Source of the DNA: an uncultured bacterium
GTDB taxonomy: Bacteria; Acidobacteriota; Thermoanaerobaculia; Multivoradales; J023
Assembly: GCA_965366625.1 (NCBI GenBank)
Contig: CBDUGP010000003.1
Coordinates: forward strand, 50,549-114,548
Direction of reading: 5' to 3'
Length of the DNA stretch: 64,000 bases
Shown: one piece after another, positions 11,552 to 43,971 of the stretch
How positions within the stretch are numbered: position 1 is the first letter of the stretch
How the letters are laid out: the number at the start of each line of letters is the position of its first letter
Program-made: the position numbers and the translations under genes
Notes under the pieces: model-generated
Database searches by the model: none
The model's input: only the letters and a program-made list of their open reading frames with translations
Told to the model about the DNA's origin: nothing

Positions 11552-12736
11552 ATGGCCAAAGAAAAGTTCGAGCGGAATAAGCCGCACGTCAACATCGGTA
11601 CTATTGGTCACGTCGACCACGGAAAGACCACCCTGACCGCTGCGATCACCAAGGTGCTCGCAGACAAAGGTCTGGCTGACTTTACCGCGTTCGACAACAT
11701 CGATAAGGCGCCGGAAGAGCGTGAGCGTGGAATTACGATCGCCACGGCCCATGTGGAGTATGAGACGGAAAACCGTCACTATGCCCACGTGGATTGCCCG
11801 GGCCACGCCGACTACGTGAAGAACATGATCACCGGTGCCGCCCAGATGGACGGCGCGATCCTGGTCGTGTCTGCCGCGGACGGTCCAATGCCGCAGACCC
11901 GCGAGCACATCTTGTTGGCTCGCCAGGTCGGTGTTCCGGCGTTGGTTGTGTTCATGAACAAATGCGACATGGTCGACGATGAGGAGTTGTTGGAGCTGGT
12001 GGAGATGGAGCTGCGTGAGCTGCTGTCGTCTTACGAGTATCCCGGCGACGATATCCCGGTGATTCGCGGCTCGGCGCTCAACGCGCTGAACGGCGAGGGT
12101 GATTGGGACAACAACATCATGGAACTCATGGGTGCAGTCGACGACTACATTCCAGAGCCCGAGCGTGTGTTGGATCAAGACTTCCTGATGCCGATCGAGG
12201 ATATCTTCTCGATTCAGGGTCGCGGTACGGTAGTTACGGGTCGCATCGAACGCGGCATCGTCAAGGTCGGTGAGACGGTCGAAATCGTTGGAATCCGCGA
12301 CACGACGAAAACTACCGTGACCGGCGTCGAGATGTTCCGCAAGTTGCTGGACGAGGGTCGCGCAGGCGACAATGTCGGCATCTTGCTGCGTGGCACGAAG
12401 AAAGACGACGTGGAACGTGGGCAAGTGCTCGCGAAGCCGGGTTCGATCAATCCTCACACGAAGTTCAAGGGCGAGGTGTACGTGCTGACGAAGGAAGAGG
12501 GTGGTCGTCACACTCCGTTCTTCAACGGCTATCGTCCCCAGTTCTATTTCCGCACGACAGATGTGACGGGTTCTTCGGCTTTGCCCGAAGGCACCGAGAT
12601 GGTGATGCCCGGAGACAACGTAAATATGTCGGTGGAGCTGATCGCTCCAATCGCAATGGAGAAGGGTGTTCGCTTCGCCATTCGCGAGGGTGGTCGCACC
12701 ATCGGTGCGGGCACTGTGACCGAGATCGTCGAATAA
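11552..12736 (+). CDS. tuf: elongation factor Tu (copy 1)
   Basis: 394-aa EF-Tu ([22 protein letters not shown]); ATG 11552; protein identical to copy 2 at 28944..30128. Confidence 0.95.
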
Positions 12737-12838
12737 GGTTGACGCCTGAACCTCGACGTTTTTCCCGCTTCCGCGACATGGACGCGGTAAGCACGTGCCC
12801 GAGGGCTCCGATAGGACCTTCGGGCATCCAAGTTATGT

Positions 12839-12914
12839 ACGGCAGTAGCTCAATTGGTAGAGCACCGGTCTCCAAAACCGGCGGTTGCGGGTTCAAGTCC
12901 CTCCTGCCGTGCCA
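12839..12914 (+). tRNA. tRNA-Trp (anticodon CCA)
   Basis: 76-nt ACGGCAGTAGCTCAATTGGTAGAGC...; anticodon loop CTCCAAA; one C-U mismatch in T-stem; classic tuf-tRNATrp-secE-nusG arrangement. Confidence 0.8.
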
Positions 12915-12938
12915 ATTTCGACTTATGAAGTAGGTTCG

Positions 12939-13145
12939 ATGGAAAAGATCAAGTACTTCTTCAACGAATTTCTTCCCGAGGTGAAAGCCGAATGGAAGAA
13001 AGTCACCACTCCGAATGCACAAGAGGTCACCCAGACCACAATCGTAGTGGTGGTGACCAGCTTCATTTTCGCTGTTTACCTCTGGTTGGCGGATGCCGCC
13101 ATCCAGTGGACCTACGAGAAGTTGTTCCAGGTTTTAGGTCTGTAA
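12939..13145 (+). CDS. secE: preprotein translocase subunit SecE
   Basis: 68-aa single-TM protein (VTQTTIVVVVTSFIFAVYLWLADAAI); ATG 12939; ORF track start 12885 runs into tRNA-Trp. Confidence 0.85.
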   Translation: MEKIKYFFNEFLPEVKAEWKKVTTPNAQEVTQTTIVVVVTSFIFAVYLWLADAAIQWTYEKLFQVLGL

Positions 13146-28943: not shown

Positions 28944-30128
28944 ATGGCAAAAGAAAAGTTCGAGCGGAATAAACCGCACGTCAACATTGGCACCATTGGT
29001 CACGTCGACCACGGAAAGACTACCCTGACCGCCGCGATCACCAAGGTGCTCGCAGACAAAGGTCTGGCTGACTTCACCGCGTTCGACAACATCGATAAGG
29101 CGCCGGAAGAGCGCGAGCGTGGAATCACGATCGCTACGGCTCACGTAGAGTACGAGACGGAAAATCGTCACTATGCTCACGTGGACTGTCCGGGTCACGC
29201 CGATTACGTGAAAAATATGATCACCGGTGCCGCCCAAATGGACGGCGCGATCTTGGTGGTCTCGGCTGCGGACGGTCCTATGCCGCAGACCCGTGAGCAC
29301 ATCTTGCTGGCCCGCCAAGTGGGCGTTCCGGCGTTGGTTGTGTTCATGAACAAATGCGACATGGTCGACGATGAGGAGTTGTTGGAGCTGGTGGAGATGG
29401 AGCTGCGTGAGCTGCTGTCGTCTTACGAGTATCCCGGCGACGATATCCCGGTGATTCGCGGCTCGGCGCTCAACGCGCTGAACGGCGAGGGTGATTGGGA
29501 CAACAACATCATGGAACTCATGGGTGCAGTCGACGACTACATTCCAGAGCCCGAGCGTGTGTTGGATCAAGACTTCCTGATGCCGATCGAGGATATCTTC
29601 TCGATTCAGGGTCGCGGTACGGTAGTTACGGGTCGCATCGAACGCGGCATCGTCAAGGTCGGTGAGACGGTCGAAATCGTTGGAATCCGCGACACGACGA
29701 AAACTACCGTGACCGGCGTCGAGATGTTCCGCAAGTTGCTGGACGAGGGTCGCGCAGGCGACAATGTCGGCATCTTGCTGCGTGGCACGAAGAAAGACGA
29801 CGTGGAACGTGGGCAAGTGCTCGCGAAGCCGGGTTCGATCAATCCTCACACGAAGTTCAAGGGCGAGGTGTACGTGCTGACGAAGGAGGAGGGTGGTCGA
29901 CACACTCCGTTCTTCAACGGTTATCGTCCTCAGTTCTACTTCCGTACGACGGATGTGACGGGTTCTTCGGCTCTGCCCGAAGGCACCGAGATGGTGATGC
30001 CCGGGGACAACGTAAATATGTCGGTGGAGCTGATCGCTCCTATCGCCATGGAGAAGGGTGTTCGCTTCGCGATCCGCGAAGGTGGCCGCACGATTGGTGC
30101 GGGCACTGTGACCGAGATCGTTGAGTGA
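28944..30128 (+). CDS. tuf: elongation factor Tu (copy 2)
   Basis: 394-aa protein identical to copy 1; nucleotide sequence diverged at synonymous sites in first ~380 and last ~240 nt, identical in the central 563 nt. Confidence 0.95.
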
Positions 30129-34910: not shown

Positions 34911-35183
34911 ATGACGGACAATATTCAGACGGAACGAAGTCGCAGGCAGGTTCTTTCGGGAACCGTGGTCAGCGACAAGATGGACAAGACCGTCACCATC
35001 AAGGTGGAACGGACGGTCATGCACCCGCTTTACAAGCGGTTCATGAAGAAGTCGCAGAAGTACGTGGCCCACGATGAAACCAATGATTGCAATATTGGTG
35101 ATCGCGTGGTGATCACAGCCTGCCGGCCCCTTTCGAGGAGCAAGCGTTGGCGGGTGACCGAAATTGTCGAACGTGCTACCTAA
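34911..35183 (+). CDS. rpsQ: 30S ribosomal protein S17
   Basis: 90-aa S17 (GTVVSDKMDKTVTIKVER ...). Confidence 0.92.
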   Translation: MTDNIQTERSRRQVLSGTVVSDKMDKTVTIKVERTVMHPLYKRFMKKSQKYVAHDETNDCNIGDRVVITACRPLSRSKRWRVTEIVERAT

Positions 35184-35198
35184 GGGAGGGAGTGAGCC

Positions 35199-35567
35199 AT
35201 GATTCAAATGGGAAGCGTCCTTGAGGTAGCAGACAATTCTGGTGCTAAACGGATCGGTTGTATCACGGTACTTGGCGGGTCTACAGGCAGGACTGCCGGC
35301 GTGGGCGACGTCATCACAGCTTCGGTCAAGGAGGCCCTGCCGGACGGCACGGCCAAGAAAGGCCAGGTTGTGAGGGCGGTCATCGTCCGGACCCGTAACG
35401 CCACCCGTCGTAAAGACGGTAGCTACATCCGCTTCGACACTAATTCTGCGGTGTTGATCGATGCAAACAACGAGCCCATCGGCACTCGTGTCTTCGGTCC
35501 GATTGCCCGCGAACTTCGCGAGCGTCGGTTCATGAAGATCGTGTCTCTGGCGCCCGAGGTTCTTTGA
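35199..35567 (+). CDS. rplN: 50S ribosomal protein L14
   Basis: [22 protein letters not shown] signature. Confidence 0.95.
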
Positions 35568-35602
35568 GCCTCTGCTCGTCTGGAGCCGAGGAGGAATACA
35601 CG

Positions 35603-35938
35603 ATGGCCAAGCTGAAGATCAAAAAAGGTGACATGGTCAAGGTGATCGCCGGGAAAGATCGAGGAACCGAGGCAAAGGTGCTGAGGGTCGATCAAAAATC
35701 CGGAAAAGCGATTGTCGAGCAAGTCAACCTGGTCAAAAAGCATACGCGCCCGAATCCACAGCGTCAGATTCAAGGCGGCATTTTGGATCGTGAGGCTCTG
35801 ATCGAGCTTTCCAATCTGATGCTGATTTGTCCTGAGACCCGAAAGCCGACCCGCGTCGGTCGAAAGGTGCGCGAGTTGGACGGCGGCAAGAAGAAGATCG
35901 TTCGGGTCGCCAAGGTTTCCGGGACGATCCTGGACTGA
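35603..35938 (+). CDS. rplX: 50S ribosomal protein L24
   Basis: [24 protein letters not shown] motif; ATG 35603 (ORF track start 35564 over-extended). Confidence 0.92.
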
Positions 35939-35960
35939 GCGCGGACTGGAGAGTTTCGAC

Positions 35961-36524
35961 ATGGCGACTAAACAATACGTACCGCGATTGAAGGCTCAGT
36001 ACCGAGACGAGGTAGTGCCCAAGATCAAAGCGGAATTCGGCATCGACAACATCATGGCCGTACCGAAGCTGGAAAAAATCAGCATCAACATCGGCCTGGG
36101 TGAGGCGAGCCGGAATTACAAGCTACTCGAGGTGGCGCAGAAAGAGCTGACGGCAATCGCCGGTCAGTATGCGACCATCACGAAAGCGAAGAAATCAATC
36201 GCAGCTTTTAAGCTGCGTGAGGGAATGCCGATCGGCACCCGCGTAACCTTACGGGGAGCCCACATGTGGGAGTTCCTCGATCGGTTGATCGCTACCGCGC
36301 TACCGCGTGTTCGTGATTTTCGGGGAGTCCCAAACAAGAGCTTCGACGGCCGAGGGAATTACACTCTCGGAGTTCGTGAGCATACGATTTTCGCCGAGGT
36401 GGATGCCACCAAGGTGGATTTCATTAAAGGTCTCAACATCACGATCGGCACGACCGCTGAAAACGACGAGCAAGCACGATTTATGTTGCGCGAGCTCGGA
36501 ATGCCCTTCGCTAAGAACAACTGA
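35961..36524 (+). CDS. rplE: 50S ribosomal protein L5
   Basis: 187-aa L5 family. Confidence 0.93.
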
Positions 36525-36588
36525 CCGCGCAGAGGAGTGTGTCGCTGCGGATCGATCGAGATCCGAACGGGCGCACGGGAGAAACGAG

Positions 36589-36987
36589 ATGAGCATGACC
36601 GATCCAGTCGCGGATCTCCTCACTCGCATCCGCAACGCTTTGCTGGCCAAACACGACCGTCTGGACGTGCCGGCCTCCAAACTGAAGCGGAACATTGTGG
36701 CCCTCCTGAAAGCAGAGGGTTACATCGAGGACTTCGAGATCATCGAGAATACGCCGCAAGACACGTTGCGTGTCTTCCTGCGCTACAGTCAGCAGGGAGT
36801 TCCAGCCATGCGCCGGGTCTACCGGGTTTCCAAACCTGGACGCCGGGTCTACCGAGGGGCGGACGACATCAAACCGGTTCTCAACGGTTTGGGTACCGCG
36901 ATCGTTTCCACGTCCAAGGGACTCTTGACCGACAGGCAAGCTCGCGAGATGCGGGTCGGCGGCGAGATCCTTTGCGAGATGTGGTGA
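36589..36987 (+). CDS. rpsH: 30S ribosomal protein S8
   Basis: MSMTDPVADLLTRIRNA S8 N-terminus; ATG 36589 with GGGAGAAACGAG RBS; ORF track start 36307 is a spurious 5' extension; no S14 gene between rplE and rpsH. Confidence 0.93.
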   Translation: MSMTDPVADLLTRIRNALLAKHDRLDVPASKLKRNIVALLKAEGYIEDFEIIENTPQDTLRVFLRYSQQGVPAMRRVYRVSKPGRRVYRGADDIKPVLNGLGTAIVSTSKGLLTDRQAREMRVGGEILCEMW

Positions 36988-37000
36988 GGAGGGACTAACG

Positions 37001-37543
37001 ATGTCACGTATCGGAAAAGCCCCAATCGATGTGCCGGCTGCCGCGAAGGTGAAAATCGAAGGCGATGTTTTCACCGCTGAAGGGCCGAAAGGCAAAGTGT
37101 CCGAGCGCATTTTCCCGGCCGAATGTCCGGTGGAGATCGAGGGCAACGTCATCCGGGTGACCCGGGTTAATGACAGCGGCTCGGTCCGCGCTAAGCACGG
37201 TTTGATCCGTGCCCTGCTCGCCAACGCGGTCACCGGCGTGGTAGAAGGGTTCGTCAAGAATCTGGAAATCGTCGGCGTCGGCTACCGTGGCGAAGTGAAG
37301 GGTAAGGAATGCCATTTCGCTCTCGGCTTCTCCCATCCGGTGGTCTTCTCGATCCCAGATGGAATAAACGTCGAGATCGATAAGAACAATAAGATCAACA
37401 TCTCCGGAGCGGACCGTCAGCAAGTCGGTCAAGTCGCGGCGGAGATCCGCAGTTTACGGCCACCAGATCCCTACAAAGCGAAGGGTATTCGGTACAGCGG
37501 TGAGCAAATCCGTCGTAAGGTCGGTAAAGCGGGCGCCCGCTGA
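37001..37543 (+). CDS. rplF: 50S ribosomal protein L6
   Basis: [18 protein letters not shown]6 signature. Confidence 0.93.
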
Positions 37544-37575
37544 TCCCAGCGAGCCTAAGAGTCACGGAGCAAGCG

Positions 37576-37962
37576 ATGAGCAACTCGCACTCAAAGAAGA
37601 TCAAGGCCAAGCGGATGCGTCGTCAACGTGCCCATTTGCGGGTTCGCAATCGGGTGCAAGGTACGGCAGAACGCCCCAGGCTGGCGATATACAAGAGCCT
37701 GCGTTATGTGTATGCCCAGGTCATCGACGATCTGAGCGGCACAACTCTGGCACAGGCGAACTCCCAAGAAGCGGATATCCGCAGTGGCTTGGATGCCTCG
37801 GCAGGCAGCAAAGAAGCTGCCGCCGCGGTCGGCAAGCTGGTGGGAGAGAGAGCCAAAGATAAAGGGGTCGAGCAAGTGGTGTTCGATCGTGGCGGGTTCA
37901 TTTATCACGGTAAAGTGAAAGCGGTGGCAGAAGCCGCCCGCGAAGCTGGACTCAAGTTCTAA
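37576..37962 (+). CDS. rplR: 50S ribosomal protein L18
   Basis: 128-aa L18 ([19 protein letters not shown] ...). Confidence 0.92.
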
Positions 37963-38027
37963 GAATGAAGTGAGGACGGGCATGATCCGTCAAATATGGC
38001 AAGGCGTAGCCTCGAAGGAGAAGCGTT

Positions 38028-38546
38028 GTGGCTAGGGATTTCGATCGCGACCCTGAGTTCGTAGAGCAGGTCGTTCACATCAACCGCGTGACCAAAGTGG
38101 TCAAGGGCGGTAAGAACTTCTCCTTCTCGGCCCTTGTGGTGATTGGTGACCAAAATGGACGGGTTGGTTATGGAACCGGCAAAGCCAAAGAGGTTCCGAT
38201 CGCCATTCGTAAGGGCATTGATGAGGCGAAGAAGAACATGATCCAGGTGCCCATGGACGGATCCACGATCCCCCATGAAACCATTGGAATTTTCAGCGCA
38301 GGAAGAGTGTTGCTGAAACCGGCCTCCCCAGGTACCGGTGTAATTGCCGGCGGCCCGGTCCGTGCGGTGATCGAGGTGGCGGGTATTCAGGACATCCTGA
38401 CGAAGTCCCTGGGTTCCACCAACCCACAGAATGTTGTGAAGGCTACCTTCCAGGGACTCTTGGACCTTCGAGACGAAAATACCATTCGTCGCGAGCGTGG
38501 CCTGCCCCCGATTGAAAAAAGCGAGCCTTCCCCGGCCTCGGCCTGA
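38028..38546 (+). CDS. rpsE: 30S ribosomal protein S5
   Basis: GTG start after GAAGGAG; [27 protein letters not shown] signature. Confidence 0.93.
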
Positions 38547-38583
38547 GGGCGAGTGACCGGAAGCACGCGCGGAGATTAGAACC

Positions 38584-38775
38584 ATGGCGAACGAAAAGAA
38601 AAGCATTCGCATCGAGCAGCACTCAAGCCCGATCGGATATCCAAAGAAGCAACGAGAGCAGCTTCGTGGGCTCGGATTGCGTCGAATTCGGCACGTCGTG
38701 GAGCGGGAGGATACTCCGGCAAACCGCGGCATGGTCAACAAGATCCCGCACTTGGTGCGTATCATCGAGGATTGA
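38584..38775 (+). CDS. rpmD: 50S ribosomal protein L30
   Basis: 63-aa L30 ([30 protein letters not shown]). Confidence 0.9.
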
Positions 38776-38780
38776 AGGTC

Positions 38781-39221
38781 ATGAAGCTGCACGATTTGTC
38801 TCCGGCTAAAGGAAGCACCAAAGCTAAGAAGAGAGTTGGACGTGGACCAGGCTCCGGATTGGGTAAAACCGCCGGACGAGGTCATAACGGTCAACGCTCT
38901 CGGGCGGGTTTCAGCCAACGTTTCGGATTTGAGGGTGGTCAGATGCCCTTGGTTCGTCGAGTGCCGAAAAGAGGTTTTACCAATCTCTTTCGCACCGAAT
39001 ATGCGGTGGTCAACCTGCGAGACCTCGGCCGCGTCGAGGGTGAAGAGATTAATCCCGACAATCTCCAGGCCAACGGTTTGGTTCGTCGCGGGATGTTGGT
39101 CAAAATTCTCGGTGAAGGCGATGTCTCCGGTGCTTTGAAGGTCAAGGCCCACAAATTCAGCAAGTCGGCGCGAGAGAAGATCGAAGCCGCCGGCGGTAGC
39201 TGCGAGGAGTTGGGCTCGTGA
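38781..39221 (+). CDS. rplO: 50S ribosomal protein L15
   Basis: [30 protein letters not shown] signature; ATG 38781 (alternative TTG 38772). Confidence 0.92.
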
Positions 39222-40597
39222 TCGACAGTTTCCGTAACATCTTCGCGATCCCCGAGCTTCGAAAGCGGATCGCCTTCACCTTCGCGCTCCTCGCGGTTTA
39301 TCGCGTGGGGTGCGTTTTGCCGGTGCCCGGGGTGAACCCTGATGCGCTGCTCGAGGTGATGGCCGCCGCGCGGCAAACGATGCTCGGCTTTCTGAATACG
39401 TTCACCGGCGGCAGTATCGAAAGGGCGGCGATCTTCGCCTTGGGCATCATGCCCTACATCACCTCTTCGATTATCTTGCAGCTATTGACCGTGGTCGTAC
39501 CCTATTTGGAGAAGCTCTCCAAAGAAGGTGAGCTCGGGCGGCGGAAGATCACCCAATATACCCGCTACGGTACATTGGTGGTGTCTCTGATCCAGTCCGC
39601 GGGCATCTCGTTCACCATCGAACGAGTGACGACGCCCGGTGGAATGTCGTTGGTGAACAACCCCGGCTGGGGTTTCCGTCTGATGACGATCCTGACCTTG
39701 ACCACGGGTTGCGCTTTCGTCATGTGGTTGGGTGAGCAGATCAGTGAACGAGGTATCGGCAACGGTATCTCCCTGATCATTTTTGCCGGTATCGTGATCG
39801 GCCTGCCGAGCGCCATCGCCAGCACCTTCACCAAGCTTCAGTCCGGTCAGCTCTCGCCGATCTTGATCGCCCCCTTGGTGATCTTTATGGGTTTGGTGAC
39901 GGCTTTCATCGTGTTCATGGAGCGGGCTCAACGACGAATTCCGGTGCAGTACGCAAAACGGGTCGTTGGGCGCAAGGTTTACGGTGGCCAGAATACCTAT
40001 CTACCGCTTCGCGTGAACACCGGCGGCGTGATTCCGGTGATCTTCGCCAGCTCGGTGGTGATGGTCTTTCCGACCCTCGCCGGACTGGTGGATTGGGAAC
40101 CGCTGCGTCGGCTGGCTGAGATGATCAGCTGGGGGCAGCCGCTCTACTACTTGATCTACGTCACGACGATCATCTTCTTTTGCTACTTCTACGTGTCGAT
40201 CATCTTCAATCCGCAAGATACGGCCGAGAACATGCGCAAGTACGGCGGTTTCATCCCTGGAATTCGTTCCGGGCGACGAACTGCCGAGTACATCGATAAG
40301 ATTCTGACCCGTTTGACTCTGATCGGTTCCCTCTACCTGGCAGCCGTATCTGTTCTGCCGGAGCTGATGCTGTTTGGTTTCAAAGTCGGGGGCCTGCCAT
40401 TCATCGGCGATACTCTCGACCGAGTGGCGCCGGATTGGATCTCCCAGGGAATGGGTATCGACTTCTACTTCGGCGGCACCTCGCTGCTGATTATCGTCGG
40501 TGTGGCGATGGATTTTGTCCAGCAGGTAGAAAGCCAGCTCGTCATGCGTAACTACGACGGCTTCCTGAAAAAAGGGCGCATCCGTGGCCGACGCTAA
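39218..40597 (+). CDS. secY: preprotein translocase subunit SecY
   Basis: 459-aa 10-TM SecY; GTG overlapping rplO stop. Confidence 0.93.
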
Positions 40598-42259: not shown

Positions 42260-42373
42260 ATGAAAGTCCGAGCATCGGTCAAACGAATGTGTTCGAAGTG
42301 CAAAGTCATTCGACGACATGGTGTCGTCCGTGTGATTTGCGAGAACCCAAAGCACAAGCAGCGTCAGGGTTAA
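42260..42373 (+). CDS. rpmJ: 50S ribosomal protein L36 (Zn-ribbon C-x2-C-x12-C-x4-H type)
   Basis: 37-aa [37 protein letters not shown]; below ORF-track length cutoff; found by direct translation between infA and rpsM. Confidence 0.9.
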
Positions 42374-43170: not shown

Positions 43171-43341
43171 CGGGTATCGGACCCTCCAAACCCATTCACC
43201 TTCGGACGAATCGCGAGTTCGGGGTTGCCTTCAGGTGGCCCTCGTCGAGTCGTCGAATATCGAAGAATTCGTGTCCTGTAGCTTCAGGGCGAGGTAGGAC
43301 AGCGTACGCCGTCCTATCCAATCCAACGAAGGAGTAGAACG

Positions 43342-43971
<630 letters not shown>

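Follow-up and report, generated by a model that had tools for sequence, protein, structure and literature searches.

Absence of the ribosomal protein S14 gene from the spc operon in a subclade of Thermoanaerobaculia

In the canonical spc operon the gene for ribosomal protein S14 lies between rplE and rpsH. In the window (the whole 64 kb stretch of DNA analyzed here, from a member of the Acidobacteriota), neither tblastn nor a profile HMM finds S14 at this position, which raises the questions of whether the gene is really missing, in which lineage it was lost and from where the ribosome of this organism is supplied with S14. Loss of the Zn-ribbon, gene duplication and horizontal transfer are all well known from ribosomal protein S14, which is a textbook example of such changes. 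In cyanobacteria and plastids, rps14 is found outside the spc-like cluster, at an unlinked locus, and the turnover of C+ and C− paralogues of ribosomal proteins was reportedly described by Makarova et al. in 2001 and by Brochier et al. in 2000. Among surveyed Firmicutes and Tenericutes, 52% have S14 twice, in a short form within spc and in a long form at another site, and in S. pneumoniae the long S14 has replaced the short form in situ (PMC8046335). Furthermore, rpsN was deleted from spc in one clade of the Leuconostocaceae (event F81), with a copy located elsewhere in each species (Brandis 2021, PMC8046335).

In this study, the rplE–rpsH junction of the window was analyzed together with the corresponding loci of relatives in public genome and metagenome collections. 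The loci are referred to by the prefix L and a number where they need to be told apart.

The rplE–rpsH junction

The features at the junction are the following.

35199–40597, + strand: run of spc-operon genes around rplE–rpsH, defined by open reading frames (ORFs), Pfam on identical contigs and intergenic gaps
35961–36524, + strand: rplE, ribosomal protein L5, 187 amino acids; ORF with the stop codon TGA at 36522–36524
36525–36588, + strand: rplE–rpsH intergenic spacer, 64 nt, non-coding, at the site of rpsZ (Zn-ribbon S14) in relatives
36589–36987, + strand: rpsH, ribosomal protein S8, 132 amino acids, beginning MSMTDPVADLL...; ORF

Both flanking reading frames are unbroken. The L5 protein has an exact record in NCBI, Logan and ENA, and Pfam Ribosomal_L5 and L5_C are recorded for the identical protein on the contigs L001–L005; Pfam Ribosomal_S8 is recorded for the identical S8 protein, the N-terminal start of which, ATGAGCATGAC, is kept among relatives. 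The earlier note on this DNA had placed the end of rplE at 36524 and the start of rpsH at 36589, with 64 nt and no gene between them, and the ORFs, tblastn and the HMM agree with this description. A gap of 64 nt is ordinary for the cluster, as the rplR–rpsE gap measures 65 nt.

S14 was sought across the window by two methods. Four S14 queries covering the long and the Zn-ribbon types were used in tblastn (word size 2, E up to 100), and no match in the 64 kb was better than E = 0.2. An S14 profile HMM made from 33 sequences of both types was run with filters off against six-frame, stop-to-stop fragments of at least 20 amino acids; the best match in the window had E = 0.72. Since the same HMM recovers S14 in 87 of the 87 fetched loci that have one, the absence is real at the sequence level. 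The note had stated that neither the spc operon nor the remainder of the window contains S14, which is confirmed by both methods, and it had allowed for an S14 coding sequence in 36525–36588 that would emerge on correction of a sequencing error; tblastn and the HMM detect none there. In addition, S14 was not found in the flank of ∼5 kb that adjoins the window on the right; the protein at the left end, as delimited here, has no database record. A divergent or frameshifted S14 in the window was considered as a separate candidate, and neither tblastn nor the filter-free six-frame HMM search found one.

The junction is reproducible. The same L5–S8 junction with the same spacing occurs in six independent metagenome assemblies (L001–L006; ENA and Logan), the exact S8 protein is present on about a dozen contigs (NCBI, ENA and Logan), and rplE is directly followed by rpsH in the window, in L001–L007, which come from this organism or a nearly identical one, and in L011. 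Of these, L007 is a GenBank MAG (Thermoanaerobaculia bacterium Co_bin.310, contig JAUIJL010000004.1) with an S8 that is 98% identical to that of the window and a window-like spacer minus 3 nt. Sample ERZ25043437 contains the window organism as well as another, more abundant Thermoanaerobaculia organism with L5–S14–S8 intact, and because this relative assembles with its S14 the assembler does not drop the gene. An S14 that is present in reality and was collapsed or lost in metagenome assembly or sequencing might be suspected, given that the window and all of its relatives are metagenome assemblies and that a GATC-rich palindrome lies within the spacer, but the identity of the junction across assemblies that differ in run and in pipeline (SPAdes NODE contigs from ENA, and Logan), its near-identical form in a separate MAG (a 3 nt indel), its diverged 79 nt version in L011, the correctly assembled S14 of the related organism in the same sample and the intact flanking frames leave this reading with practically no probability. 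It is effectively refuted, and the rplE–rpsH junction of the window is not an artefact.

Several other genes for ribosomal proteins and translation factors in the window were recorded alongside the junction.

11552–12736 and 28944–30128, + strand: two tuf genes
12737–12940: interval between the first tuf and secE, containing tRNA-Trp (12839–12914)
42260–42373, + strand: rpmJ, ribosomal protein L36, 37 amino acids, Zn-binding C+ form (CxxC...CxxxxH), in the 169 nt infA–rpsM gap
43171–43341: rpsK–rpsD gap, 171 nt; no other truly non-coding interval between the clustered ribosomal-protein genes is as long
43342–43971, + strand: rpsD, ribosomal protein S4, with the N-terminal cysteines C9, C12, C26 and C31 of the Zn-binding form

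The rpmJ gene is uncalled on the identical public contigs, which show nothing annotated from infA to rpsM. The two tuf genes encode identical EF-Tu proteins; their DNA is 95.3% identical (1129/1185 nt) and their flanks are unrelated. The first of them follows a four-tRNA cluster (Thr-Tyr-Gly-Thr) and precedes tRNA-Trp, secE and nusG. Because tRNA-Trp is the only gene in the tuf–secE interval and rpmG is not found there, L33 must be encoded outside the window. Furthermore, since L36 and S4 keep their Zn-binding forms, the change in S14 does not belong to a wholesale loss of Zn-ribbons from the ribosomal proteins.

Phylogenetic position of the loss

The comparative set was obtained by an S8 scan over GTDB species representatives, which returned 76 loci with both L5 and S8. 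S14 lies between L5 and S8 in 70 of these 76 loci. The six exceptions are L007 and L011 (Thermoanaerobaculia, Acidobacteriota), L041 and L080 (Bacteriovoracaceae) and L052 and L078 (Gemmatimonadales). The nearest S14-bearing relatives of the window, L008 and L009, which show 74–77% identity over L5 and S8, carry a 61-amino-acid Zn-ribbon S14 (CxxC...CxxC; ...RNRCxVCGRPR...) between the two genes. In a neighbour-joining (NJ) tree of L5 and S8, the window, L007 and L011 form one clade that is sister to L008/L009 and is nested inside the S14-bearing Thermoanaerobaculia, whereas the pairs L041/L080 and L052/L078 are each monophyletic within their own phyla.

The S14 gene has thus been deleted from the spc operon of a clade that sits within the S14-bearing Thermoanaerobaculia. 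Because the S14-less clade is nested among relatives that all carry S14, the simplest reading of these sequences would be a single recent deletion in the ancestor of the subclade. Likewise, the losses in the Bacteriovoracaceae and the Gemmatimonadales would most simply be taken as two independent, parallel events. The note had described the arrangement as typical of cyanobacteria and plastids, at a locus that is otherwise non-cyanobacterial. The latter part holds, as the closest genomes are Thermoanaerobaculia (Acidobacteriota) MAGs; the former is too narrow, as the arrangement has, according to the locus comparison and the NJ tree, also arisen independently in the Thermoanaerobaculia subclade, in the Bacteriovoracaceae and in the Gemmatimonadales.

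The S14-less pairs outside the Acidobacteriota were also inspected individually. Both the Bacteriovoracaceae pair and the Gemmatimonadales pair are nested among S14-bearing relatives. Their rplE–rpsH spacers measure 16–17 nt in the Bacteriovoracaceae (L041, 9984–10000; L080, 4569–4584) and 10 and 47 nt, respectively, in the Gemmatimonadales (L052, 9991–10000; L078, 6300–6346). S14 was not found in the 10 kb flanks on either side of these four loci. At the L5–S8 position of the Gemmatimonadota-type loci, the Zn form of S14 is present in L048 and L085, a long form of 101 amino acids in L063, L069, L072 and L084, and no S14 in L052 and L078; these three states suggest that active paralogue replacement may be under way in the group.

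Some of the public labels deserve comment. L063 is labelled just 'uncultured bacterium', and its S14 is a close match to that of L069. L016 (CAXMQZ010000061.1) is titled Polyangiaceae, yet it groups with the Thermoanaerobaculia on L5 and S8 and its S14 motif is typical of that clade. L046 (JAIWFS010000003.1) is titled 'archaeon', yet it has a bacterial L5–S14–S8 arrangement with the gene spacing of L045 and L083. L016 and L046 are likely to be taxonomic mislabels of public MAGs.

The 64 nt spacer and its hairpin

Three features were distinguished within the spacer.

36537–36576, + strand: predicted extended stem-loop with the outer stem GUGUGUC/GGCGCAC, without statistical support
36548–36565, + strand: inner perfect 6 bp hairpin, CGGAUC (36548–36553) paired with GAUCCG (36560–36565), loop GAUCGA
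36577–36581, + strand: Shine–Dalgarno-like GGGAG, 7 nt before the rpsH ATG, unpaired in the predicted fold

Global alignment of the window spacer with the S14–S8 spacer of L008 reveals a weak resemblance (z = 2.8, p = 0.007 against shuffles), part of which is the common ribosome-binding site, GGAG...AACGAG-ATG. L008, L011 and L016 have a GGAG element in the corresponding place. The resemblance is no more than suggestive of an event in which rpsZ and the L5–S14 spacer may have been excised and the downstream spacer, with the ribosome-binding site of rpsH, kept. Neither a promoter-like nor a terminator-like site was found in 36525–36588, and the GGGAG element precedes the ATG; rpsH is therefore read as part of the operon transcript, with an initiation signal of its own.

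The hairpin CGGATC/GATCCG that the note had pointed out is indeed present at 36548–36565. The function proposed for it, that of an S8-binding translational operator by which rpsH would be autoregulated, fares differently. The proposal draws on a perfect 6 bp hairpin that can be extended to an interrupted stem of 13 bp, 11–40 nt upstream of the rpsH Shine–Dalgarno sequence, and on the retention of the hairpin stem in L007 despite the 3 nt deletion in its loop. However, L007 is about 98% identical and its retention of the stem is uninformative, whereas the spacer of L011 is unrelated in sequence at the hairpin position, where the hairpin is not conserved. The predicted minimum free energy of the region, −22.9 kcal/mol, is at the level of shuffled sequences (mean −22.3; z = −0.22; 81 of 200 dinucleotide shuffles are as stable), a second shuffle test of the hairpin region gave z = −0.75, and the folds of the spacers of L007, L011, L008, L016 and L078 are also shuffle-like, with all z values above −1. 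A permissive Rfam scan of 35100–37100 (E up to 10) returned only tRNAs or chance-level matches, as did a scan of the whole window at the gathering thresholds, and the hairpin matches no Rfam family.

The S8 operator has been characterized only in E. coli, where it overlaps the translation start of rplE and imitates the S8 site of 16S rRNA, which is irregular (PMC3616713). The two are alike in being RNA elements inside the spc transcript, but the hairpin of the window lies downstream of the rplE stop codon and upstream of rpsH, and it is a regular helix without statistical or comparative support. A role as an S8 operator is accordingly judged very unlikely.

Three GATC sites fall within 15 nt of the window spacer, at 36549–36563 (GGATCGATCGAGATCC), in the hairpin; L007 has two. 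This clustering is probably due to chance.

The source of S14 and the significance of its displacement

Since S14 is universal and essential, it is presumably encoded at another locus of the window genome. With considerable confidence, the arrangement is explained by a lineage-specific deletion of rpsZ from spc in the ancestor of the Thermoanaerobaculia subclade, with S14 supplied from elsewhere. According to this explanation, rpsZ, encoding the 61-amino-acid Zn-ribbon S14, and the short L5–S14 spacer would have been lost in one deletion in the common ancestor of a small subclade that includes the window organism. The residual non-coding spacer would probably be mostly the old S14–S8 intergenic region and, because it keeps the Shine–Dalgarno sequence of rpsH, S8 and the downstream genes would still be translated from the same operon transcript. 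The ribosome would be supplied by an S14 gene elsewhere that most likely predates the deletion; it may be an additional copy of paralogous or xenologous origin, frequently of the long, Zn-independent type, the Leuconostocaceae being an example, or else a relocated copy.

Paralogue turnover of this kind is consistent with the Gemmatimonadota loci, in which the L5–S8 position is occupied by the Zn form, by the long form or by no S14. Against the paralogue step, a second S14 copy of either type was found in none of the 105 fetched loci, those of the Thermoanaerobaculia included, and these loci thus give no direct sign that the Thermoanaerobaculia once had two. Of a Zur-regulated pair, in which a Zn-ribbon S14 would be accompanied by a Zn-independent copy behind a Zur box, neither member is present in the window.

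A simpler course of events would be a translocation in which the same Zn-ribbon rpsZ moved to another locus, where it would still be the sole S14, without any pre-existing paralogue. This possibility, which is considered to be unlikely but is not to be neglected, fits every observation in the window, and the retention of the Zn-ribbons of L36 and of S4, with its four cysteines, does not point to a broad abandonment of Zn binding. The moved orthologue would be expected to be ∼85% identical to the S14 of L008 and L009 and hence to rank within the best 120 matches. When the S14 of L009 was used as the query against protein records, 2087 matches were obtained, and among the best 120 of these, which were considered, there is none of the Zn type that is attributable to the window organism; as an argument against translocation this is weak. 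Three candidates from the search (P0056, P0120 and P0035) all lie in the ordinary L5–S14–S8 context, and in a scan of JGI metagenomes with a Thermoanaerobaculia S14 alignment S14 adjoins S8 in 80 of 80 loci of this S14 type. Moreover, in the published precedent the loss is preceded by a pre-existing second copy (PMC8046335). A search with a long-type S14 profile returned only Gammaproteobacteria, mostly Halomonas, and is uninformative. Taken together, the database searches speak weakly against a closely related, relocated copy of the Zn type and say nothing about a long or foreign copy.

In two short JGI contigs, S14 or the C-terminus of L5 runs in frame into unrelated sequence. The partner in L148 (5–889) is an upstream sequence of no assigned identity, and in L154 (601–873) it is an unrelated N-terminus joined to ...ARFLLKEMGMPFGSR. 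Both fusions are most likely to be chimeric assemblies.

It is extremely improbable that the window clade truly lacks a recognizable S14, its ribosome working without uS14 or with a substitute diverged beyond recognition: the gene was not found in the window, in the right flank of ∼5 kb or, in the databases, among neighbours of the type to be expected, but the DNA covered amounts to ∼70 kb of a genome of several megabases, S14 belongs to the universal ribosomal proteins and, in all documented cases of an spc operon without S14, the gene lies at another locus (PMC8046335). Just as little likelihood is given to the wider proposition that the 30S head of the Thermoanaerobaculia subclade, and perhaps of the Bacteriovoracaceae and Gemmatimonadales clades too, is built without S14 or with an unrelated or divergent substitute.

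Deletion of rpsZ with S14 supplied from another locus can be compared with three known situations. The closest is that of the Leuconostocaceae, where rpsN/rpsZ was likewise lost between rplE and rpsH in one clade among relatives with the short Zn-type gene, and where the remaining spc operon is intact, as it is in the window. The two differ in that the surviving long copy outside spc is known in the Leuconostocaceae, whereas a surviving copy in the window organism is inferred, and in that the former belong to the Bacillota and the latter to the Acidobacteriota. Cyanobacteria and plastids also have S8 directly after L5, with an S14 that is unlinked there and presumably so here; however, the cyanobacterial arrangement is an ancient, phylum-wide trait, whereas that of the window clade arose recently, in a small subclade whose sisters retain rpsZ. 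Finally, the recurrent duplication, Zn-ribbon loss, displacement and horizontal transfer of S14 that characterize C+/C− turnover are matched by the three states of the Gemmatimonadota loci; in the Thermoanaerobaculia the paralogue step is a presumed one, and none of their fetched loci has a further S14, whether Zn-ribbon or long.

These results are of practical consequence because S14 (PF00253) and the L5–S14–S8 adjacency serve as universal single-copy markers and as synteny anchors. An S14 gene located outside the operon can depress estimates of completeness and can confuse phylogenies for which the ribosomal proteins are taken from the spc contig. A new mechanistic question would arise only if the genome proved to be entirely without S14. 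The loss of S14 from spc is otherwise an ordinary rearrangement, specific to its lineage, and similar ones are known from other phyla. It adds the Acidobacteriota, as well as the Bacteriovoracaceae and the Gemmatimonadales, to the lineages in which S14 has been excised from a highly conserved operon, and it supports the notion that turnover by paralogues and xenologues affects S14 to an unusual degree.
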